DNA of 64,000 nucleotides from NCBI GenBank assembly GCA_041743505.1, contig JBGTMQ010000017.1, positions 15,680 to 79,679 of the forward strand. The letters are read 5' to 3'. Each line of letters opens with the position of its first letter. Position 1 is the stretch's first letter. Position numbers and translations under genes: made by a program. Positions 1,446 to 52,528 of the stretch are shown piece after piece. The DNA is from Candidatus Saccharimonadia bacterium (GTDB lineage Bacteria; Patescibacteriota; Saccharimonadia; UBA4664). The notes under the pieces are model-generated. The model was not told where the DNA came from, searched no databases, and saw nothing but the letters and a program-made list of their open reading frames with translations.

Positions 1446-2531
<1,086 letters not shown>

Positions 2532-2574
2532 CCCGTTACGCTATTACTACAAGATAGTAACCGAACAGAAACCG

Positions 2575-2594
2575 TACTGTCAACTCCCCGGTAA
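2575..2594 (-). promoter_or_regulatory. recA promoter -35 region (cggggagTTGACAgtacgg on the minus strand), 17-nt spacer to a TTACTA -10 that overlaps a TTACTA-N5-TAGTAA palindrome
   Basis: TTGACA hexamer about 45 nt upstream of the recA start; the same 37-nt segment recurs at 4846-4882. Confidence 0.45.
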
Positions 2595-2648
2595 TTATCC
2601 CCTAGATACATAACACTTACCCTTACTCCCAACTGCTATAATTGGGCC

Positions 2649-2807
2649 ATGAGTGACATAGCCAAAAAGCCGGTTAAACCGGCTCAAGAAAAGCGCCCGC
2701 TAGGCTGGTCTGACCGCCCAGAGCGGGACAAGCTACCCCAAGACCGGGAGGATGCGAGGGAGTCTTTTGACGCGCTGTTGGATAAGGTGAGCAAACCCAA
2801 GAAATAA
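2649..2807 (+). CDS. candidate small ORF (52 aa, MSDIAKKPVKPAQEKRPLGWSDRPERDKLPQDREDARESFDALLDKVSKPKK), divergent from recA
   Basis: Clean ATG-to-TAA frame in the recA upstream gap; below the 60-aa cutoff of the ORF track; no RBS or homology support. Confidence 0.2.
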   Translation: MSDIAKKPVKPAQEKRPLGWSDRPERDKLPQDREDARESFDALLDKVSKPKK

Positions 2808-3016
2808 GCATTGGCAGTCTCTTGACCCGATTGCTAAAAGCGGCTATGCTCCAGGTAAGTCGTCGTGCCGGTTTGTCCCAGCACACGGCCCACGGTCAAC
2901 TAGCCGTGAGTAAAATCAAAGCCTTTAGGTAAGTTTGGGCGGGCTGGCGCTGCCAGTCGTTAAAAACTAGACCCGCACGGCGGTACGCGCCACCTTCCGA
3001 CAGTCACACTGGCGGG

Positions 3017-3205
3017 GTGGAGGGTAAAGGTTTGGGATACATTATTTTCCGACCCAACAGCAACCCCCAGCCGCGACGTAAAACTCCGGCCGAGAAAGAG
3101 CTGGAGGAGCAGCAACAAGCTGCTACGCTCGCCTATGTCCGGGAGCATTTTCAAAAGCTCCAACTACAAAAGGCTGACAACCATAAAGGTCGCAGCCCAG
3201 AGTAG
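3017..3205 (+). CDS. hypothetical small basic protein (62 aa)
   Basis: ORF followed 10 nt later by a clean intrinsic terminator hairpin. Confidence 0.3.
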   Translation: MEGKGLGYIIFRPNSNPQPRRKTPAEKELEEQQQAATLAYVREHFQKLQLQKADNHKGRSPE

Positions 3206-32658: not shown

Positions 32659-33597
32659 TTATCTGTCTTTACTAGCCGTCGCCACCCGGTAAACCAACTG
32701 CTCCACTGCCGCTTCAGGCTTCAACCGGCCTGATTTTATGTCAAACTCACACTCAGCCGCCGCCCGGTAGGCGTTCACGAGCGTAGCCTGGCTATGACGG
32801 CGATGGCTGCTCAGCATCTTGCCCGCCACAAACGGAGACATGCCGGCCGCTTTAGCCAGCTCTGATTGTGACAACCCAGGAGCAGTTTTGGCCAATAACA
32901 AGTTACGCAATTGCCACTGAACCATGGTCAAAATGTATAGCTCGTTCTCCCGGTTAGCCAGCAGGTTACGGTAACCAACCAGGGCCGCGTCAGTACGGCC
33001 TGCCGTCATTGCCTCCACCATATCAAACACCGACTGGTCGATACTCGGCGCCACCAACTTGCGCACCGTTTCCACCGTAACCACCGGATCATAATTGACC
33101 AGCTTGCCGATCTCGCCGGACAGCCGCCATTGGTCGCCCCCGGTAAGGTCCAGCAACTCTTGCAGCATCCGGCGGTCAGCCTGGCCACCAATACGCTCGG
33201 TCTCAGCCTTAGCCCAAGCCAATAGCTGTGGTACCGGCAGCGGATCAAATTTAACCACTTTATCGGCCCGGCTCAACGCCTTAAACAAAGCCGTCCGCTG
33301 GTCAATGCTCTGTTCCACGAACACCGCCACAGTGCTACTCGGAACCGCCGAAAGCATGGCCGCCAATTTCTCACTTATGGCTTTATTGAGAGATAAATCC
33401 TCCACAATTACCAAACGGCTAGTCGCCATAAACGGCGCTGCCTGCAACGTCGCCACTAGCTCACGCGGTTTCACATTAGAGCCATTAACCCGCTCCAGCC
33501 CGATATCCGAACCCGTCTTAGCCTTATAGGCCTCCATCATTTGGCTCAGCTGATGGCGCAAAGCATAGGTATTTGGCCCGTAAAAGAAAAACGTCAT
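32659..33597 (-). CDS. holA: DNA polymerase III subunit delta
   Basis: 312-aa; N-terminal FFYGPNTYALRH...VIVEDLS pattern and overall length typical of HolA. Confidence 0.7.
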   Translation of the reverse strand: MTFFFYGPNTYALRHQLSQMMEAYKAKTGSDIGLERVNGSNVKPRELVATLQAAPFMATSRLVIVEDLSLNKAISEKLAAMLSAVPSSTVAVFVEQSIDQRTALFKALSRADKVVKFDPLPVPQLLAWAKAETERIGGQADRRMLQELLDLTGGDQWRLSGEIGKLVNYDPVVTVETVRKLVAPSIDQSVFDMVEAMTAGRTDAALVGYRNLLANRENELYILTMVQWQLRNLLLAKTAPGLSQSELAKAAGMSPFVAGKMLSSHRRHSQATLVNAYRAAAECEFDIKSGRLKPEAAVEQLVYRVATASKDR

Positions 33598-34475
33598 ACC
33601 AAATCAAGCTTCTGACACATAGGGCAAACGTGCGTACCCCGGCCGGCCACGCGAATCTTTTCAATCAACGTTCCGCAAACTGGACATGGCTGCCCCTCCC
33701 GGCGAAATACCCGGGCATTCTCTAAATAATCACCCTTACCACCCAGCGAGTTAACATAATGGGCAAAACTCGTGCCGCCATGCTCAATGCCCAGCCCCAT
33801 AATCTCCCGGACAGCCGCATGCAGCCGCTTATTCTCAGCAGCCGTCAGCGAACCAGCCAACCGCCGCGGATGCAGTTTGGCCAGGTGCAATGATTCATCA
33901 GCATAAATATTGCCAATCCCCGCCACCACCGCCTGGTCCAAAATCACCGGCTTAACCGGTGCTCGCTTATGCCGCTCCAATTGAGACTGTAAATACGTCA
34001 CGCTAAACGCATCCGACAATACTTCCGGCCCCAACCGCGACACCAACGTATCAAGTTCAACCTCAGCCGTCGGCACCAGTTTAATCCAACCGAACTTACG
34101 CTGGTCATTAAAATACAGCACGTCACCCGAAGTCAGCCGGAAAATCACCCGTGTCGACACGTCCGGCAGCTCGCTGGCCATGCTCTCGGTCGGATGTCCC
34201 CCGGCCATACGCACGCCATCGGCTTTCACCAGCACCATCTGGCCGGTCATCTTGAGGTGAAACAGCAGCGAGTAGCCATTATCCAGATCAATTATCAAGA
34301 CCTTAGCCCGCCGGCTTACCCGGATAATCCGCGCCCCAGGCATAATCTGCTCCCGCAAGACCTGCGGCATCTGAAAGCTCCTCTCCCACAATACCTCAAT
34401 ATCCGACACTCTCTGGTCCACCACCTCCCGCTCCAAACCGCGCCTGATTGTCTCAACCTCCGGCCCTTCCGGCAT
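33594..34475 (-). CDS. mutM: formamidopyrimidine-DNA glycosylase (Fpg/MutM)
   Basis: N-terminal MPEGPEVE (catalytic Pro2/Glu3), H2TH region, C-terminal zinc finger CPVCG...CPMCQ; the ORF track begins two codons earlier at MGM. Confidence 0.85.
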   Translation of the reverse strand: MPEGPEVETIRRGLEREVVDQRVSDIEVLWERSFQMPQVLREQIMPGARIIRVSRRAKVLIIDLDNGYSLLFHLKMTGQMVLVKADGVRMAGGHPTESMASELPDVSTRVIFRLTSGDVLYFNDQRKFGWIKLVPTAEVELDTLVSRLGPEVLSDAFSVTYLQSQLERHKRAPVKPVILDQAVVAGIGNIYADESLHLAKLHPRRLAGSLTAAENKRLHAAVREIMGLGIEHGGTSFAHYVNSLGGKGDYLENARVFRREGQPCPVCGTLIEKIRVAGRGTHVCPMCQKLDLV

Positions 34476-34533
34476 CCCCAAAACCTCGTTACGCTAATTA
34501 GTATAGGGCATCAACAAATTATCAACCCCAACA

Positions 34534-34562
34534 TTGACAAATCAATCAGGATATGCCAATAT
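34534..34562 (+). promoter_or_regulatory. cassette-1 promoter TTGACA-17-CAATAT (alternative TATAAT with a 20-nt spacer)
   Basis: Conserved with the cassette-2 promoter TTGACA-17-TAAAAT; followed by the conserved leader GATATCCG...TCGGACATCGCA..CCGACAAATCACCCGAT-ATG. Confidence 0.5.
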
Positions 34563-34610
34563 AATAATGATATCCGGTTTTCGGACATCGCACCCGACAA
34601 ATCACCCGAT

Positions 34611-34928
34611 ATGATCCTGGAGGTCATGGTGAACGCTCAAACCGATGTATCGGGCAGCTCTACAACCAAGAGCCAGCCCAAACCAGTGTACAAAGCCAGT
34701 ATCTGCTCCTGGGCCGTCGTATTCTGGATGGTGCTGTTATTGGTCAGCTCCCTCACAATCGACCAATATCTCGCCCTCTACGTGTGGCTGGCAACCGGTA
34801 TTGTATTCCTCTACACAACCGGCCTGTGTGTGATAATCATCAGACACATCGACTTCCGCTCGCAGTACCCAGTCACCAGCTCACCTGCGACAGAGCCGCC
34901 GGCCTCAACAACCACCACGGAAAGCTAA
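34611..34928 (+). CDS. small membrane protein, cassette 1 (MILEVMVNAQT..., 3 TM)
   Basis: In frame with ORF-track entry 34194..34928, whose N-terminal part is antisense to fpg; the N-terminus MILE(V/S)(M/I)V(N/T)A is shared with the cassette-2 ORF. Confidence 0.45.
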   Translation: MILEVMVNAQTDVSGSSTTKSQPKPVYKASICSWAVVFWMVLLLVSSLTIDQYLALYVWLATGIVFLYTTGLCVIIIRHIDFRSQYPVTSSPATEPPASTTTTES

Positions 34929-35008
34929 TCTCAGCCTCACAGGCAAGCGGCCCAAGAAACCTGACCGGGACATCCCGCATCAGTCCGCTTGCCTCCGGGT
35001 GATTTGTC

Positions 35009-35066
35009 GGTACCTTAGTCAAATGTATATTTTGGCCTGACGAGTCCTAAAGGACGAAAAGGTACC
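35009..35066 (+). ncRNA. type-III hammerhead self-cleaving ribozyme, copy 1 (predicted cleavage after A35017)
   Basis: GGUACCUUA|GUCAAA-UGUAUAU-UUUGGC-CUGACGA-GUCC-UAAA-GGAC-GAAA-AGGUACC. Conserved core C3U4G5A6N7G8A9 and G12A13A14 present; stems I (6 bp), II (4 bp, UAAA loop) and III (8 bp) all form; U16.1-A15.1 pair and H17=A. Confidence 0.8.
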
Positions 35067-35083
35067 ATTCACAGCCACAGAAG

Positions 35084-35112
35084 TTGACAAATCAAACAGC
35101 TTGTGCTAAAAT
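35084..35112 (+). promoter_or_regulatory. cassette-2 promoter TTGACA-17-TAAAAT
   Basis: Consensus -35, 17-nt spacer, good -10; lies 18 nt downstream of hammerhead copy 1. Confidence 0.55.
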
Positions 35113-35161
35113 AATAAAGATATCCGATCCTCGGACATCGCAACCCGACAAATCACCCGAT

Positions 35162-35482
35162 ATGATCCTGGAGAGCATCGTGACTGCCAAGACATCAAAA
35201 TCAGGCAACGATCAGCCGGCAAACAACCATGAAGGTAGGTTCTTCGTTGCAATGGGAATCGGCTTGTGGATTATGAGCGTCTTTCTGTACATAAGAACCG
35301 GCATGGACGAACTCAGCCTTGAGGCGCTCGTGAAAACCACCACCGGCTGCGTAGTTCTCGCATCAGGAGGGATTATCCTGGTCGTAATCGGCGCCGCTCT
35401 TGGGATACTGAGCCGCATCGACTCTGCGGTGGCAAAGTTGACCACAACAGACACCGCTCCCGCGCCCGACAGCAAAAGCTGA
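35162..35482 (+). CDS. small membrane protein, cassette 2 (MILESIVTAKT..., 3 TM)
   Basis: ORF-track entry 35084..35482 trimmed to the ATG homologous to cassette 1; the upstream in-frame part covers the promoter. Confidence 0.45.
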   Translation: MILESIVTAKTSKSGNDQPANNHEGRFFVAMGIGLWIMSVFLYIRTGMDELSLEALVKTTTGCVVLASGGIILVVIGAALGILSRIDSAVAKLTTTDTAPAPDSKS

Positions 35483-35514
35483 CACCGGACACACCCCGAC
35501 CAGGAGGTCATAGG

Positions 35515-35805
35515 ATGACTGCCCCAGCCACCACTCCCGGCAACAAGCAGCTCAATCAATGCGTATGGACGCTAAGCGTCGGAATAGGCCTGTTGGTCTT
35601 TAACACCATTCTCAGCGCAGCTGTCGCATTCCAGGTCGAAGATTGGCAGATGGCCATAAAGTTCCTGGGCATCCAGTTTAGCCTGCTTTCCCTCGGAGTT
35701 CTTCTGGTCACAATCGCCGCGGTTCTCTACTTCGCCGGTAAACAAGCCCCACTGGCGGCAGACACCGGGACGGTTCCTACACCAGCAGAGACCACCGGCG
35801 CCTAA
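35515..35805 (+). CDS. small membrane protein, second gene of cassette 2 (96 aa, 2-3 TM)
   Basis: AGGAGG RBS 7 nt before the ATG; hydrophobic. Confidence 0.45.
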   Translation: MTAPATTPGNKQLNQCVWTLSVGIGLLVFNTILSAAVAFQVEDWQMAIKFLGIQFSLLSLGVLLVTIAAVLYFAGKQAPLAADTGTVPTPAETTGA

Positions 35806-35886
35806 CCCTCCAACCACACAGGCAAGCGGCCCAAGAAACCTGACCGGGACATCCCGCATCAGTCCGCTTGCCTCCGGGTGATTTGT

Positions 35887-35944
35887 CGGTACCTTAGTCA
35901 AATGTATATTTTGGCCTGATGAGTCCTAAAGGACGAAAAGGTAC
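35887..35944 (+). ncRNA. type-III hammerhead self-cleaving ribozyme, copy 2 (predicted cleavage after A35895)
   Basis: Identical to copy 1 except U7 (canonical CUGAUGA); lies within a 130-nt block matching 34937-35066. Confidence 0.8.
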
Positions 35945-36059
35945 CCCTTCTAGCATATGACCAATATTAGTCCGCTCAGCAAGCAGTTTGCTCGCCATAC
36001 TGCCCAATGTTCTCGTCATGCCAAGACGACTACTGTATAGAAGTTAAGGAGAGGATCTT

Positions 36060-36278
36060 ATGGCAAGTGACAGTGAGAGTATTAGCCCGGCCGAAGCCCA
36101 AAAAGCGCTTGCAGGCATTAGTTTTCCTGCCGAAAAGCAGGACTTAGTGGAGCGCGCCAAGGAAAATGACGCTGATGAGCGCGTCATGGACTTCCTGGAG
36201 CGCATTCCAGATCGGGAATATGAAGGTGTAACCGATGTATCAAAAGAGATCGGTCGTCAAGACCGGGAATCGTCTTAA
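36060..36278 (+). CDS. DUF2795-family small protein
   Basis: ISPAEAQKALAGISFPAEKQDLVERAKENDADERVMDFLERIPDREYEGVTDV fits the DUF2795 pattern (Y/F-P-A-x-K-x-D-L...LP-D-R-x-Y); AAGGAGAGG RBS. Confidence 0.55.
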   Translation: MASDSESISPAEAQKALAGISFPAEKQDLVERAKENDADERVMDFLERIPDREYEGVTDVSKEIGRQDRESS

Positions 36279-36295
36279 ACAAAAAGTGCAGGTAC

Positions 36296-36336
36296 AAACA
36301 GGGCGGCCCTCCTAGGTCGCCCTGTTTTTTTGATAC
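36296..36336 (+). terminator. intrinsic terminator (AAACAGGGCGGCCCTCCTAGGTCGCCCTGTTT then TTTTTGAT)
   Basis: Long GC stem plus T-run right after the DUF2795 gene. Confidence 0.6.
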
Positions 36337-36382
36337 AATAAAAACAAATAAGCATTAGGACTTAGGAGCTAGAAGCACCACC

Positions 36383-36730
36383 ATGGCCAAATCCTCCATC
36401 CGCAAAATTCCGTTTAGCCGTTTCGTGGTTGTGGCAAGTGCCGGCCTCGTGGGCTTTTTAGCTTTCTGGCAAGCTTTTTTCTCATTTACAGGCTACCGGC
36501 CGTGCGCCCTTCAAAATCCCGACTACGTCATACCGCCTAACCCCAACGCCGCCATAACCGAACTGGGTATATGCATCATAGCCATGGTTGTCCTGTTTTG
36601 GGGTGCCAAACGGTTACGCACCAACTTCCCCGAAGGTTTCTTCGGCTACAGCATGGTCGTCGTAAACCTTCTCATCGGTGAAGGCTTACTGGCCTTTGTC
36701 TTCTTGCGGTTATCAACCTGCGCCGGCTAG
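36383..36730 (+). CDS. hypothetical membrane protein (115 aa, 3 TM)
   Basis: Hydrophobic ORF; convergent with polA. Confidence 0.4.
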   Translation: MAKSSIRKIPFSRFVVVASAGLVGFLAFWQAFFSFTGYRPCALQNPDYVIPPNPNAAITELGICIIAMVVLFWGAKRLRTNFPEGFFGYSMVVVNLLIGEGLLAFVFLRLSTCAG

Positions 36731-36732
36731 CT

Positions 36733-39567
36733 CTACAACTCGCCCCAATGCCGGCCAATCGCCGTATCCACCGCCAACGGCACACCCAAATCAATTATCC
36801 CACTCATCGTCTCTTGCATCAGCCGGGCCACTTCCTCGCCTTTTTCGACCGGTGACTCCACGATCAGCTCATCATGAATCTGTAACAATAATTTCGAATC
36901 CGCATCGAGCTTAGCAGCCAGCTCTATCATGGCCAGTTTATAAATATCCGCCGCCGTACCCTGAATTGGCACGTTTACAGCCATCCGCTCAGCCCCGGAC
37001 CTTATCTGAAAATTATTCGACCGGATTTCCGGACAAGCCCGCCGCCGCCCAAATAACGTCGCTATATATTGGTTGTCATAAGCAAACTTCTTGGTCACCT
37101 CAATATAATCTTTAAGCTTGGGACGCATCTCAAAATAACGCCCGATAAACTCAGCTGCCGCCTTGCCATCCATGCCCGTAGCCACGCTCAAACCATGTGC
37201 ACTCATGCCATACAACACACCAAAGTTAATGGTTTTAGCCGCATACCGCTGCTCCTTGGTCACTGCATCCAGCGGCACACTAAACAGCTCGGCCGCCGTC
37301 TGCTGATGCAGGTCAATACCGGTCCTAAACGTCTCCAGCATGGCCTCGTCCCCAGACAGCGCCGCCGCCACGCGCAGCTCAATCTGCGAATAGTCCGCAC
37401 TCACCAGCACCCGTGACCTAGGCGCCACGAACGCCGTCCGAATCTCCCGGCCCAGCTCAGTCCGCACCGGTATGTTCATCAAATTCGGGTTCGATGAACT
37501 CAGACGCCCCGTCTGCGCAATCACCTGCGAAAAACTCGTATGCACGCGCCCATCTACACCAACCTCTTCAGGCAAGGCCGTTACATATGTATTCATCAGT
37601 TTATCCAGCTCGCGGTATTCCATAATGAGCTCGATAATCGGATGCAAATCCCGCATCCGCTCCAACTCACCCACCGCCGTCGAGTAGCCGGTTTTGCCTT
37701 TCTTCACGCCCACGGTACTCAAACCAAGCCGCCCATACAAAATCTGACCCAATTGTGCCGGGGAAGCCAGGTTAAACTCCTCACCGGCCAGATCATACAC
37801 CTTGCCCTTCAGCTCGCCAATCCGCGCACTCAGCCGTCCACCCAGCCGCTCGAGATAACCTTTATCAAGCTCAATTCCAGCGATCTCCATCTCACCAAGA
37901 ACCGAAATAATCGGCCACTCAACTTCACTTGCCAGTCGCTCCATGTTCCAGCCGTACTCGTTTACCTGGCCTGCATGTTGCTTCAGCTCATCCCGCAGCT
38001 TCACATACAGCCGCCAGGCCATATCCGCATCCTCAGCCGCATACGTCGTAGCGTGCTCAATCAGCGTCTTGTCAAACGTCACCTGCGTCTTCTTATCCGC
38101 TCCGATCAGTTCCGAGATTGGAATCATCTCCACATCCAGCTCGTTATATGCCAGGTCCGCCAAAGACTGCGCCCGGCCGATCGAGTTCAACAAAAACGCC
38201 GCAATCATCGTGTCAAACACGATCCCCTGCATCCGCACCCCATGCCGCCGCATCACTTCATAATCAAACTTTATATTATGCCCCGTCTTACCAATCTTCG
38301 AGTTCTCGAACAGCGGCTTCAGTTTCCGGATCACCTCGTCCCGCTTCAGCTGCGTACCCTCGGTGTGACCCACCGGAATGTAATAAGCTTCTGCTTCTTT
38401 AAATGACACGCTCACACCCACCAGGTTCACGCTCAACGTATCCAGCGAATCCGTCTCCGTATCAAACGCAAACACCTCCTGCTGCTCCAGTTGTCCGATC
38501 AACACCTCCAGCTTACCCATATCCGTAATAGCGTCATATTTCACGCTAGCCAGATGCGTCCGCTCGCGCTTAACTGTCGGCGCACCCGAATCATCAAACA
38601 GTGTTGGTATCGCCGGCTCCACCCCAGCCGCAACCCCGCCGTTCACGCGCATATCCGGCGGCAATTTAGCTAGTAAACTCCGAAAATCCAGCCGGTGAAA
38701 CAGCTTCGTTACATGCTCGCGGTCAAAATGCCCCACCCGCGCCGGTTCCAGCTCCAGCTTAATCGGTGCGTCACACACAATCACGCTCAGCTTGCGGCTT
38801 AAATAAGCCATATCCTTATTCACACGCAACTTGTCACCGGTACTCCCGGCAATCTCATCAATGTGCTCATAAATCCCATCCAGCGTCTTATATACCGCCA
38901 ATAACTTCCGCGCCCCCACGTCCCCAATACCTGCTACACCCGGGATATTGTCGCTCTTATCGCCAATCAGCGCCTTATAATCAATAAATTGCTGCGGCGT
39001 CAGCCCGTATTTTTCCTGCATTTTGGCCAGATCATACCGCGTCGGCTCCAAGCCACGCGGATTAAACATATCTACCACCGTTTGCTTATCCACCAGTTGC
39101 AACTGGTCCTTGTCGCCGGTCGCGATCACAATATCCAGGTCACCTCGCTCCTCCGCCTGCCGCGCCAACGTCCCAATAATATCGTCCGCCTCGTAGTTCT
39201 CCAACTCAATCCACGGGAGGTTCAACGCCTCCACCAGCTCCCGCGTTGCCGGAATCTGCGCATACAAATCATCCGGCTGTTTTTTTCGCGTTGCCTTATA
39301 TTCCGGATACATTTCATTCCGAAACGTCTTCGACGACTTGTCCCACGTTACAATCACGTACTCCGGATTCAGGCCCTGAATCACCTTCAACATAATGTTT
39401 GTAAAACCCAGCACCGCATTCGTCGGCAAGCCTTCTCTATTCGATAAAGGCGGAATAGCATGATAACCGCGGTGAAATACCGCTGAACCGTCCACCAACA
39501 CCAACAATGGCTTTTTACTCATATACCCATTGTAAGCCCATCCGACGCGAGGGCCCAAATCAACCAT
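36733..39567 (-). CDS. polA: DNA polymerase I (5'-3' exonuclease, 3'-5' exonuclease-like and polymerase domains)
   Basis: 944-aa; polymerase motifs DYSQIELR (A) and RRAAKTINFGVLYG (B) and QIHDELIVE (C); N-terminal 5'-nuclease LVLVDGSAVFHRGYHA. Confidence 0.95.
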   Translation of the reverse strand: MVDLGPRVGWAYNGYMSKKPLLVLVDGSAVFHRGYHAIPPLSNREGLPTNAVLGFTNIMLKVIQGLNPEYVIVTWDKSSKTFRNEMYPEYKATRKKQPDDLYAQIPATRELVEALNLPWIELENYEADDIIGTLARQAEERGDLDIVIATGDKDQLQLVDKQTVVDMFNPRGLEPTRYDLAKMQEKYGLTPQQFIDYKALIGDKSDNIPGVAGIGDVGARKLLAVYKTLDGIYEHIDEIAGSTGDKLRVNKDMAYLSRKLSVIVCDAPIKLELEPARVGHFDREHVTKLFHRLDFRSLLAKLPPDMRVNGGVAAGVEPAIPTLFDDSGAPTVKRERTHLASVKYDAITDMGKLEVLIGQLEQQEVFAFDTETDSLDTLSVNLVGVSVSFKEAEAYYIPVGHTEGTQLKRDEVIRKLKPLFENSKIGKTGHNIKFDYEVMRRHGVRMQGIVFDTMIAAFLLNSIGRAQSLADLAYNELDVEMIPISELIGADKKTQVTFDKTLIEHATTYAAEDADMAWRLYVKLRDELKQHAGQVNEYGWNMERLASEVEWPIISVLGEMEIAGIELDKGYLERLGGRLSARIGELKGKVYDLAGEEFNLASPAQLGQILYGRLGLSTVGVKKGKTGYSTAVGELERMRDLHPIIELIMEYRELDKLMNTYVTALPEEVGVDGRVHTSFSQVIAQTGRLSSSNPNLMNIPVRTELGREIRTAFVAPRSRVLVSADYSQIELRVAAALSGDEAMLETFRTGIDLHQQTAAELFSVPLDAVTKEQRYAAKTINFGVLYGMSAHGLSVATGMDGKAAAEFIGRYFEMRPKLKDYIEVTKKFAYDNQYIATLFGRRRACPEIRSNNFQIRSGAERMAVNVPIQGTAADIYKLAMIELAAKLDADSKLLLQIHDELIVESPVEKGEEVARLMQETMSGIIDLGVPLAVDTAIGRHWGEL

Positions 39568-52440: not shown

Positions 52441-52528
52441 TGGCGGAGGGAGAGGGATTCGAACCCTCGAGGGCTTGCACCCAACGCGCTTTCCAAGCGC
52501 GCGCCATAGGCCACTAGGCGACCCCTCC
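52441..52528 (-). tRNA. tRNA-Ser (anticodon GGA), encoded CCA
   Basis: Reverse complement GGAGGGGUCGCCUAGUGG...CUUGGAAAG...GGUUCGAAUCCCUCUCCCUCCGCCA: 7-bp acceptor stem, D-loop, anticodon loop with GGA, long variable arm, T-loop GTTCGAATC. Confidence 0.85.

Follow-up and report, generated by a model that had tools for sequence, protein, structure and literature searches.

Hammerhead ribozymes that flank single genes or short gene blocks have been described in prophages and bacteria, and it was proposed that they cut long transcripts into gene-length messengers (Perreault et al. 2011, PMC3088659); what bacterial self-cleaving ribozymes do, glmS apart, is still called 'largely elusive' (Weinberg et al. 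2019, PMC6765202). Here, we describe two tandem gene cassettes, each closed by a type III hammerhead, that lie in the gap between polA and mutM of a Saccharibacteria genome, on a stretch of 64,000 nucleotides (nt) from Candidatus Saccharimonadia bacterium (contig JBGTMQ010000017.1, positions 15,680 to 79,679; hereafter the window, to which coordinates refer unless another locus is named). On balance, we favour the reading that each cassette is an autonomous transcription unit with a self-processing messenger RNA (mRNA), the two ends of which would be clamped together by pairing of the 5' leader with the 3' end.

Several described systems share parts of this architecture. As in the blocks of Perreault et al. 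(2011, PMC3088659), tandem hammerheads bracket single genes of inconstant identity; here, however, the context is a chromosomal housekeeping one (polA/mutM) and not a prophage, each unit has a promoter of its own, and the helix that flanks the cut site pairs with the 5' leader. The hammerheads have in common with the Rfam family RF00008 the complete core (CUGANGA ... GAAA, A15.1-U16.1, H17), three stems and an open stem III, but they score under its gathering threshold and belong to a distinct bacterial subfamily. The predicted transcripts recall hok/sok-type mRNAs in the long-range pairing of a 5' leader with the 3' end, in 3' processing and in a small hydrophobic product, and differ from them in that processing would be autocatalytic, the Shine-Dalgarno sequence (SD) is free, only weak signals of an antisense gene are present, the proteins are larger and the cargo of relatives is often soluble. 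A stable 3' helix that protects the transcript is also known from intrinsic-terminator hairpins, and cleavage that defines ends and insulates neighbouring units from engineered ribozyme insulators and 3' ribozymes (RiboJ, hepatitis delta virus (HDV) 3' ends); in contrast to both, the present elements are natural, would not terminate transcription and would form the helix with the far 5' end. Retrozymes and viroid-like circles likewise consist of direct repeats, each with a type III hammerhead, and yield an excised RNA with ligatable ends, whereas the units described here are DNA-encoded with internal promoters and open reading frames (ORFs), and their relatives have a single hammerhead. The searchable literature, which is incomplete, holds no description of a leader-to-3'-end clamp beside a hammerhead and no account of hammerheads in Saccharibacteria. 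The ribozyme type and the general idea of processing are already known; the end-clamping architecture is new, and it is testable.

Anatomy of the two cassettes

The cassettes occupy a plus-strand region between two housekeeping genes on the minus strand, mutM (33594-34481, whose product has Fapy-DNA glycosylase domains) and polA (36733-39567), and are followed by a DUF2795 gene with a canonical terminator. Both have the same order of parts, namely an extended -10 promoter, a 5'-terminal hairpin, a 15-nt 5' clamp, one or two ORFs, a 3' hairpin, a 3' clamp and a hammerhead:

34534-34565, plus: promoter P1, with -35 box TTGACA (34534-39) and extended -10 box TGcCAATAT (34554-62), which overlaps TATAAT (34560-65)
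34569-34589, plus: 5'-terminal hairpin 1 (predicted fold), GAUAUCCG..CGGACAUC, at the predicted transcription start
34594-34608, plus: 5' clamp 1, CCGACAAATCACCCG, the perfect 15-nt complement of 34996-35010
34611-34928, plus: ORF1, 105 amino acids (aa) from ATG 34611 or, more likely, 99 aa from GTG 34629; two transmembrane (TM) helices and an S/T/P-rich tail
34941-34994, plus: 3' hairpin 1, with a 10-bp stem (AGGCAAGCGG/CCGCUUGCCU) and a 34-nt loop
34996-35010, plus: 3' clamp 1, CGGGTGATTTGTCGG, the last two G of which overlap hammerhead stem III
35009-35066, plus: hammerhead 1, type III, predicted cleavage between 35017 and 35018
35084-35112, plus: promoter P2, TTGACA-17-TAAAAT with TGc, 11 of 12 matches
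35119-35139, plus: 5'-terminal hairpin 2 (predicted fold), with the stem of cassette 1 and a different loop
35145-35159, plus: 5' clamp 2, CCGACAAATCACCCG, the perfect complement of 35875-35889
35162-35482, plus: ORF2, 106 aa from ATG 35162 or, more likely, 100 aa from GTG 35180; two TM helices
35502-35805, plus: ribosome-binding site (RBS) AGGAGG (35502-07) and ORF3, ATG 35515, 96 aa, a two-TM helical hairpin
35820-35873, plus: 3' hairpin 2, a copy of 34941-34994 within a 98% identical repeat
35875-35889, plus: 3' clamp 2, which pairs with 5' clamp 2
35888-35945, plus: hammerhead 2, type III, predicted cleavage between 35896 and 35897

A first-pass annotation of this DNA had placed promoters at 34534 (TTGACA-17-CAATAT) and 35084 (TTGACA-17-TAAAAT). 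Both predicted promoters are present and, with a 17-nt spacer and TGn before the -10 box, both belong to the extended -10 type; the CAATAT hexamer of P1 has 3 of 6 matches only, but it is followed, 3 nt downstream, by TATAAT. A TGnTAnAAT box at P1 can be aligned with the -10 boxes of the related cassettes described below. The conserved leader reported for both cassettes was also recovered: the 5' blocks (34534-34632 and 35084-35183) are 82-93% identical and share the 15-nt CCGACAAATCACCCG, while the 135-nt 3' blocks (34932-35066 and 35811-35945) are 98% identical. Although the flanks are 87-98% identical, the ORF bodies have no detectable DNA similarity, their global-alignment identity being no better than that of shuffled sequence, a comparison that shows only this lack of detectable similarity. 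The clamp element itself has four exact occurrences, and when up to three mismatches are allowed it has 10 matches, compared with a shuffle mean of 2.05. For the predicted processed transcripts (34570-35018 and 35120-35897) the 15-bp clamp is found in both the minimum free energy (MFE) and the centroid folds, with z of -5.1 and -3.3, and so are the 5' hairpin and the 3' hairpin.

A contig of a relative in the European Nucleotide Archive (ENA; L202) has the same synteny, with a DUF2795 protein 78% identical to that of the window and a downstream membrane protein, ORF115, 87% identical. It keeps the 3' hairpin, the clamp and the hammerhead upstream of DUF2795, with compensatory changes; in the stem of the 3' hairpin, which there has a short loop, an A-U pair is changed to G-C.

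The ORFs of 105, 106 and 96 aa that were annotated at first are all present, the third with its AGGAGG RBS. The accompanying claim that the first ORF of each cassette has no SD does not hold, and the idea that leader pairing takes its place is not supported, as GGAGG (34619-23) for ORF1 and GGAGA (35170-74) for ORF2 each lie 5 nt before an in-frame GTG (34629 and 35180) and the clamp ends 10 nt upstream of GGAGG. ORF1 and ORF2 probably start at these GTG codons, which are favoured because the 12-mer CCTGGAGGTCAT is met again, as CCAGGAGGTCAT, in the ORF3 RBS, because L216, a related cassette, is spaced in the same way (clamp, 10 nt, GGAGG, 4 nt, ATG), and because the N-termini then obtained, MNAQT... 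and MTAKT..SGN, resemble the MTAPATTPGN of ORF3. The three products have a common plan, in which a polar N-terminus of some 20 aa precedes two hydrophobic helices and a tail rich in S/T/P/A. A structural comparison of the small membrane proteins, suggested earlier, was made for ORF3, whose AlphaFold model is a plain helical hairpin (pLDDT 70.9) with no Foldseek match in the PDB at E <= 0.001.

Word-indexed searches of 5.8 billion proteins returned self-matches only for ORF2 (the database entry being annotated as 76 aa) and ORF3, an exhaustive HMMER search of 1.84 billion representatives matched ORF1 in its low-complexity tail only, and exact look-ups of ORF3 and the annotated ORF2 in a contig index returned nothing. 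No Pfam family at gathering score and no PHROG (E <= 0.01), NCBIfam or PADLOC match was obtained for ORF1-3, and in L202 the ORF beside the hammerhead encodes an unrelated membrane protein that is not akin to ORF3. The toxin-like or phage-derived origin that had been suggested finds no backing in these searches, nor in the housekeeping neighbours or in the related cassettes, which have soluble cargo as well. The codon-usage log-odds of ORF1-3 are intermediate between those of coding and non-coding sequence; codon statistics are not decisive here, because the score is just as low for ORF115, a membrane gene with 87% conservation in L202. We argue that ORF1-3 are translated because they share a protein plan, have SDs and fit exactly between the conserved flanks, and we propose that the cargo consists of fast-evolving, lineage-specific two-helix membrane proteins.

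The hammerhead subfamily and the recurrence of the clamp

When 2 kb were searched in Rfam's E-value mode, RF00008 was found at 35010-35065 (33.7 bits, E 6.4e-05) and at 35889-35944 (35.8 bits, E 1.6e-05); in gathering mode, with a threshold of 48.5 bits, neither hammerhead was found. The catalytic core is whole in both copies (CUGACGA or CUGAUGA, GAAA, the A15.1-U16.1 pair and A as H17), it is surrounded by three stems of which stem III is open, as in type III, and the predicted cuts fall after A35017 and A35896, 7 nt past the 3' clamp. The MFE structure of hammerhead 1 on its own is the canonical fold and leaves the 3' clamp free. The two copies are 879 nt apart and bracket ORF2 and ORF3.

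A core-pattern scan of metagenomes gave 29 loci, about 20 of them unique, with hammerheads of the same subfamily. When 21 sequences are aligned, both sides change in each of the six stem I pairs and in the distal pairs of stem III; 92% of the alignment cells are paired, a share that drops to 37-50% if the partner columns are shifted. With a covariance model derived from this alignment, hammerhead 1 of the window reaches 68.0 bits and hammerhead 2 reaches 69.2 bits. The subfamily is marked by a loop 1 of about AUGUGUGU, a stem II of GUCC-NAAA-GGAC and a stem III ending in CCUU/AAGG; stem III has 8 bp in the window and only 5-6 bp in most relatives. Its pattern had no match in 2.9 million viral contigs, and in the same contigs type III hammerheads whose stem III differs in sequence are plentiful. 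Judged by these sequence features, the window hammerheads belong to a distinct bacterial subfamily of type III.

The clamp was sought in the 19 loci for which 350 nt or more upstream are available, by comparing the longest perfect complement with shuffles; RNAduplex energies had proved too noisy as a detector of distal clamps and were replaced by these counts. A complement of at least 11 nt, located 420-1000 nt upstream, is found in 7 of the 19 loci, that is, in the two window cassettes and in five others (L206, L212, L214, L216 and L218), where 11-14 nt just 5' of stem III are perfectly complementary to a site 500-1000 nt upstream. Each of the seven is matched by at most 0.4% of shuffles (p <= 0.004), while the remaining loci have complements of 6-9 nt only, which is the chance level. 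In the positive loci the upstream partner lies 28-46 nt past a TGnTAnAAT-like -10 box, directly after a short hairpin, so that the five other loci have analogues of the 5' hairpins of the window. The clamp helix in each related locus encloses exactly one long ORF with an SD, and the predicted cleavage would leave a tail of 7-9 nt (15 nt in L212). Since the helix sequences differ between loci, except for a GACAA-like start, the change is compensatory at the level of the whole helix. These results agree with the earlier proposal that the leader pairs with the 3' end, given the perfect 15-nt complements, their pairing in the MFE and centroid folds and a layout that recurs in five unrelated loci; fold predictions and recurrence also support, at the RNA level, the suggestion that transcript ends are set by the hammerheads.

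The cargo of the related clamped cassettes is diverse and includes both membrane proteins and soluble proteins of 190-285 aa; 9 of 10 cargo proteins have no Pfam family, and the flanking genes are cellular. An IS30-like transposase gene (HTH_38 plus rve) adjoins the clamped cassette of L218, at 2055-3035 of that locus, which hints that some cassettes sit in mobile or variable regions. Among other hammerheads of the subfamily, that of L223 (4705-4760, minus strand) lies about 200 nt upstream of groES-groEL and that of L222 (1990-2045, minus strand) follows the gene of a polytopic membrane protein of 947 aa; orphan genes are thus not the only ones beside which the module occurs.

Subfamily loci that have no distal partner mostly have a local hairpin flush against stem III. 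At least 8 of the last 12 nt before stem III are paired in 70% of 43 hammerheads, compared with 27% of random positions in the same loci (Mann-Whitney p 1e-9). We infer a common denominator, in which the upstream cleavage product would end in a stable helix followed by a short tail. A GC-rich hairpin flush against stem III is also seen almost always in viral type III hammerheads (L082-L201, for example L091, L102, L146 and L158), and the palindromic motif GTGTCTTyAAAGACAC is common to many of these hammerheads on phage contigs.

Proposed transcript processing and its alternatives

In the reading that we hold with moderate confidence, RNA would start from the extended -10 promoter at the 5'-terminal hairpin and continue through the 15-nt 5' clamp, the SD and the coding region (ORF1 in cassette 1, ORF2 and ORF3 in cassette 2). 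Past the stop codon it would form the stable hairpin, followed by the complementary 3' clamp and the directly adjoining type III hammerhead, which would cut 7 nt after the clamp and leave a 2',3'-cyclic phosphate; as the cut would define the 3' end, this end would be made without a terminator. The clamp would tie both ends of the mRNA into a 5'-3' panhandle, in which the 3' end is buried in a helix with a short single-stranded tail and the 5' end is a hairpin. Ends clamped in this way would be expected to protect the mRNA from exonucleases and to set it apart from read-through RNA.

A number of points weigh against this reading. Both hammerheads score below the curated Rfam threshold, and the hammerhead of L202, from an assembly of about 3x coverage, has a C.A mismatch in stem II. 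The distal clamp was found in only five independent loci outside the window, and even these are not fully independent, because their leaders share the short GACAA-like start. ORF1-3 have no homologues and only intermediate codon-usage scores. The organism also uses an ordinary terminator (36296-36327), which leaves the need for a ribozyme in question, and a tail of 7-9 nt may be long enough for some 3' exonucleases. Moreover, the argument is built on the layout of the sequence, on covariation among the ribozymes, on the recurring clamp and on predicted folds, from which cleavage, transcription starts, end protection and its effect on stability, and translation are all deduced.

The clamp might instead serve chiefly to control the ribozyme, the leader stacking on a short stem III and preventing the 3' clamp from pairing wrongly with the catalytic core, so that only correctly initiated and fully folded transcripts would be cleaved. 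The short stem III of most relatives (5-6 bp) would suit such a role, as would the position of the clamp, which abuts or overlaps stem III, and the 3' regions of L216 and L212 are predicted to misfold into the core when the leader is removed. The window hammerhead, with its 8-bp stem III, nevertheless folds canonically as MFE structure in the absence of the leader, and the relatives that have a local hairpin in place of a distal clamp are more simply explained by a protective helix at the 3' end. We regard this control as unlikely to be the chief function of the clamp, although it could act alongside end protection.

We give little credence to a type I toxin-antitoxin system of the hok/sok kind, in which fold-back would keep the mRNA of a hydrophobic toxin stable and silent until 3' processing, and an antisense RNA would target the leader. 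The small hydrophobic proteins and an mRNA with 5'-3' pairing and 3' processing recall such systems, and a short anti-leader RNA could be produced from a weak promoter-like site on the minus strand (35190-35162, TTGGCA-17-GATCAT, 9 of 12 matches, within the first codons of ORF2) together with terminator-like hairpins on that strand (35139-35119 and 34589-34569). These 'terminators', however, are the reverse complement of the 5' hairpin beside an AT-rich -10 box, and the minus-strand signals as a whole are more probably a by-product of that arrangement. The proteins, for their part, have 96-106 aa and two TM helices instead of fewer than 60 aa and one. With the clamp ending at 34608 and 35159 and the SD beginning at 34619 and 35170, the SD is not occluded, and no conserved alternative pairing between leader and SD was found. 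The soluble proteins of 190-285 aa in related clamped cassettes and the lack of a match to PADLOC or any other family also argue against a toxin.

It is similarly improbable that the locus encodes a retrozyme- or viroid-like circle, in which an 879-nt RNA (35018-35896) would be cut from read-through RNA at both hammerheads and its ends ligated. The clamp and a re-formed stem III would juxtapose the 5'-OH and the 2',3'-cyclic phosphate for ligation by the reconstituted hammerhead or by RtcB, a step that we consider just as improbable, and the product, with an equally small chance of being real, would be a circular mRNA, encoded in the chromosome, that specifies two membrane proteins, the bacterial counterpart of retrozyme circles. 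Such a circle would account for the direct repeats of 135 nt, 98% identical and each bearing a type III hammerhead, on the two sides of cassette 2, and in the excised RNA the 3' tail GGUACCUUA can pair again with the 5'-terminal strand of stem III. Each unit, though, has its own promoter, and hammerhead-bearing repeats lie on both sides of cassette 2 only. Circularisation is not required for the clamp either, as each of the five related clamped loci has just one hammerhead, with no second copy upstream. In addition, tandem bacterial hammerheads gave no circular or spliced products when these were sought (Perreault et al. 2011, PMC3088659), and no RtcB was seen among those window ORFs that were scanned, an incomplete set.

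Very improbable, finally, is a repeated non-coding element with chance reading frames and flanks of duplicated regulatory or decaying mobile sequence, since the missing homologues among billions of proteins, the codon scores between the coding and non-coding distributions and the unrelated ORF upstream of the L202 hammerhead, all of which would fit it, are opposed by three ORFs of identical protein plan that exactly fill the space from leader and SD to 3' block, by the equally low codon usage of the conserved ORF115, and by the one long ORF with SD in every related clamped cassette.

Downstream genes, genomic setting and implications

The plus-strand unit continues beyond the second cassette:

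35946-36059, plus: 5' region of the DUF2795 gene, with a weak -10-like CAATAT (35962-67), a hairpin (35983-36003) and the RBS AAGGAGAGG (36046-54)
36060-36278, plus: DUF2795 gene, 72 aa; PF11387 with 77.2 bits, E 8.7e-22, profile positions 2-54 of 54 (gathering score 25 bits)
36296-36336, plus: intrinsic terminator, a 13-bp stem (36296-36327) and a T-run, which ends the whole unit

The DUF2795 gene with a strong RBS and its own terminator was thus correctly described at first. The CAATAT hexamer has no TGn, unlike P1, P2 and the promoter of ORF115, and L202 has a perfect TATAAT at the same place. The hairpin in the 5' untranslated region has a GCAGU/ACUGC stem and an 11-nt loop, and the block CAGTTTGnTCGCCATnCTGCCCAATG is kept in L202 with one U.G change. 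If the cassettes are self-processing, end-clamped units, the polymerase would read on past the hammerheads, so that P1 and P2 transcripts would also feed the DUF2795 gene; hammerhead 2 would then free a DUF2795 mRNA with a 5'-OH, a folded ribozyme body at its start and an end at the terminator. An origin of this mRNA by read-through and hammerhead cleavage is plausible. ORF115 (36383-36730) encodes a three-TM protein, and its extended -10 box TGATACAAT (36331-36339), also kept in L202, overlaps the T-run of the DUF2795 terminator.

The neighbours of the cassettes are holA, mutM, polA, rpsT, purF and an Rpf-like gene, with no prophage or integrase setting. An association with a prophage, raised in the first-pass annotation, is contradicted by these housekeeping neighbours, by the lack of PHROG matches and by the absence of the subfamily from the 2.9 million viral contigs. 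Nor does composition mark the locus as novel, its GC content being 0.48-0.58 against 0.50-0.59 in the flanks. The closest MutM relatives, from metagenome-assembled genomes of Saccharimonadales/Saccharibacteria, are only 49-53% identical; the window therefore comes from a divergent Saccharibacteria genome, to which no GTDB species representative is closely related. A MutM synteny scan of GTDB genomes gave 80 loci (top identity 53%), and the gene order polA-mutM-holA is kept in many of these genomes. None of ORF1-3, DUF2795 and ORF115 was found in the polA/mutM gap of the 80 loci, and no subfamily hammerhead in 1.3 Mb of their flanking DNA. As to the occurrence of the cassette in relatives, the hammerhead, the clamp and DUF2795 were accordingly found in L202 and the layout in five metagenome loci, but not in the GTDB MutM loci.

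At the position of cassette 1, just upstream of mutM, several other Saccharibacteria genomes have a divergent ORF of 78-83 aa with no convincing Pfam match:

L002, 9689-9925, minus strand of the locus: 78-83 aa ORF
L003, 9707-9958, minus strand of the locus: 78-83 aa ORF
L017, 9738-9974, minus strand of the locus: 78-83 aa ORF
L022, 9708-9944, minus strand of the locus: 78-83 aa ORF

An independent assembly of the same organism (L001, a Logan contig of 8015 nt) breaks 170 nt upstream of DUF2795, inside hammerhead 2, a break point consistent with confusion of short-read assembly by the 135-nt repeat. The sole match in the window at an Rfam gathering score is an 85-nt transfer RNA gene with a long variable arm (52444-52528, minus strand, 50.3 bits).

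A rule open to mutational tests emerges from the locus and its relatives: a helix precedes the hammerhead cut site, and in one subfamily the partner strand of this helix is the 5' leader of the same mRNA. If the end-clamp reading is true, cleavage would yield a panhandle mRNA with both ends protected, and a widespread ribozyme class would gain a function in the terminator-independent formation and stabilisation of 3' ends, the natural equivalent of the ribozyme insulators of synthetic biology. Uncultured bacteria, including Saccharibacteria, would then possess a portable expression module for a mostly orphan, fast-evolving cargo.

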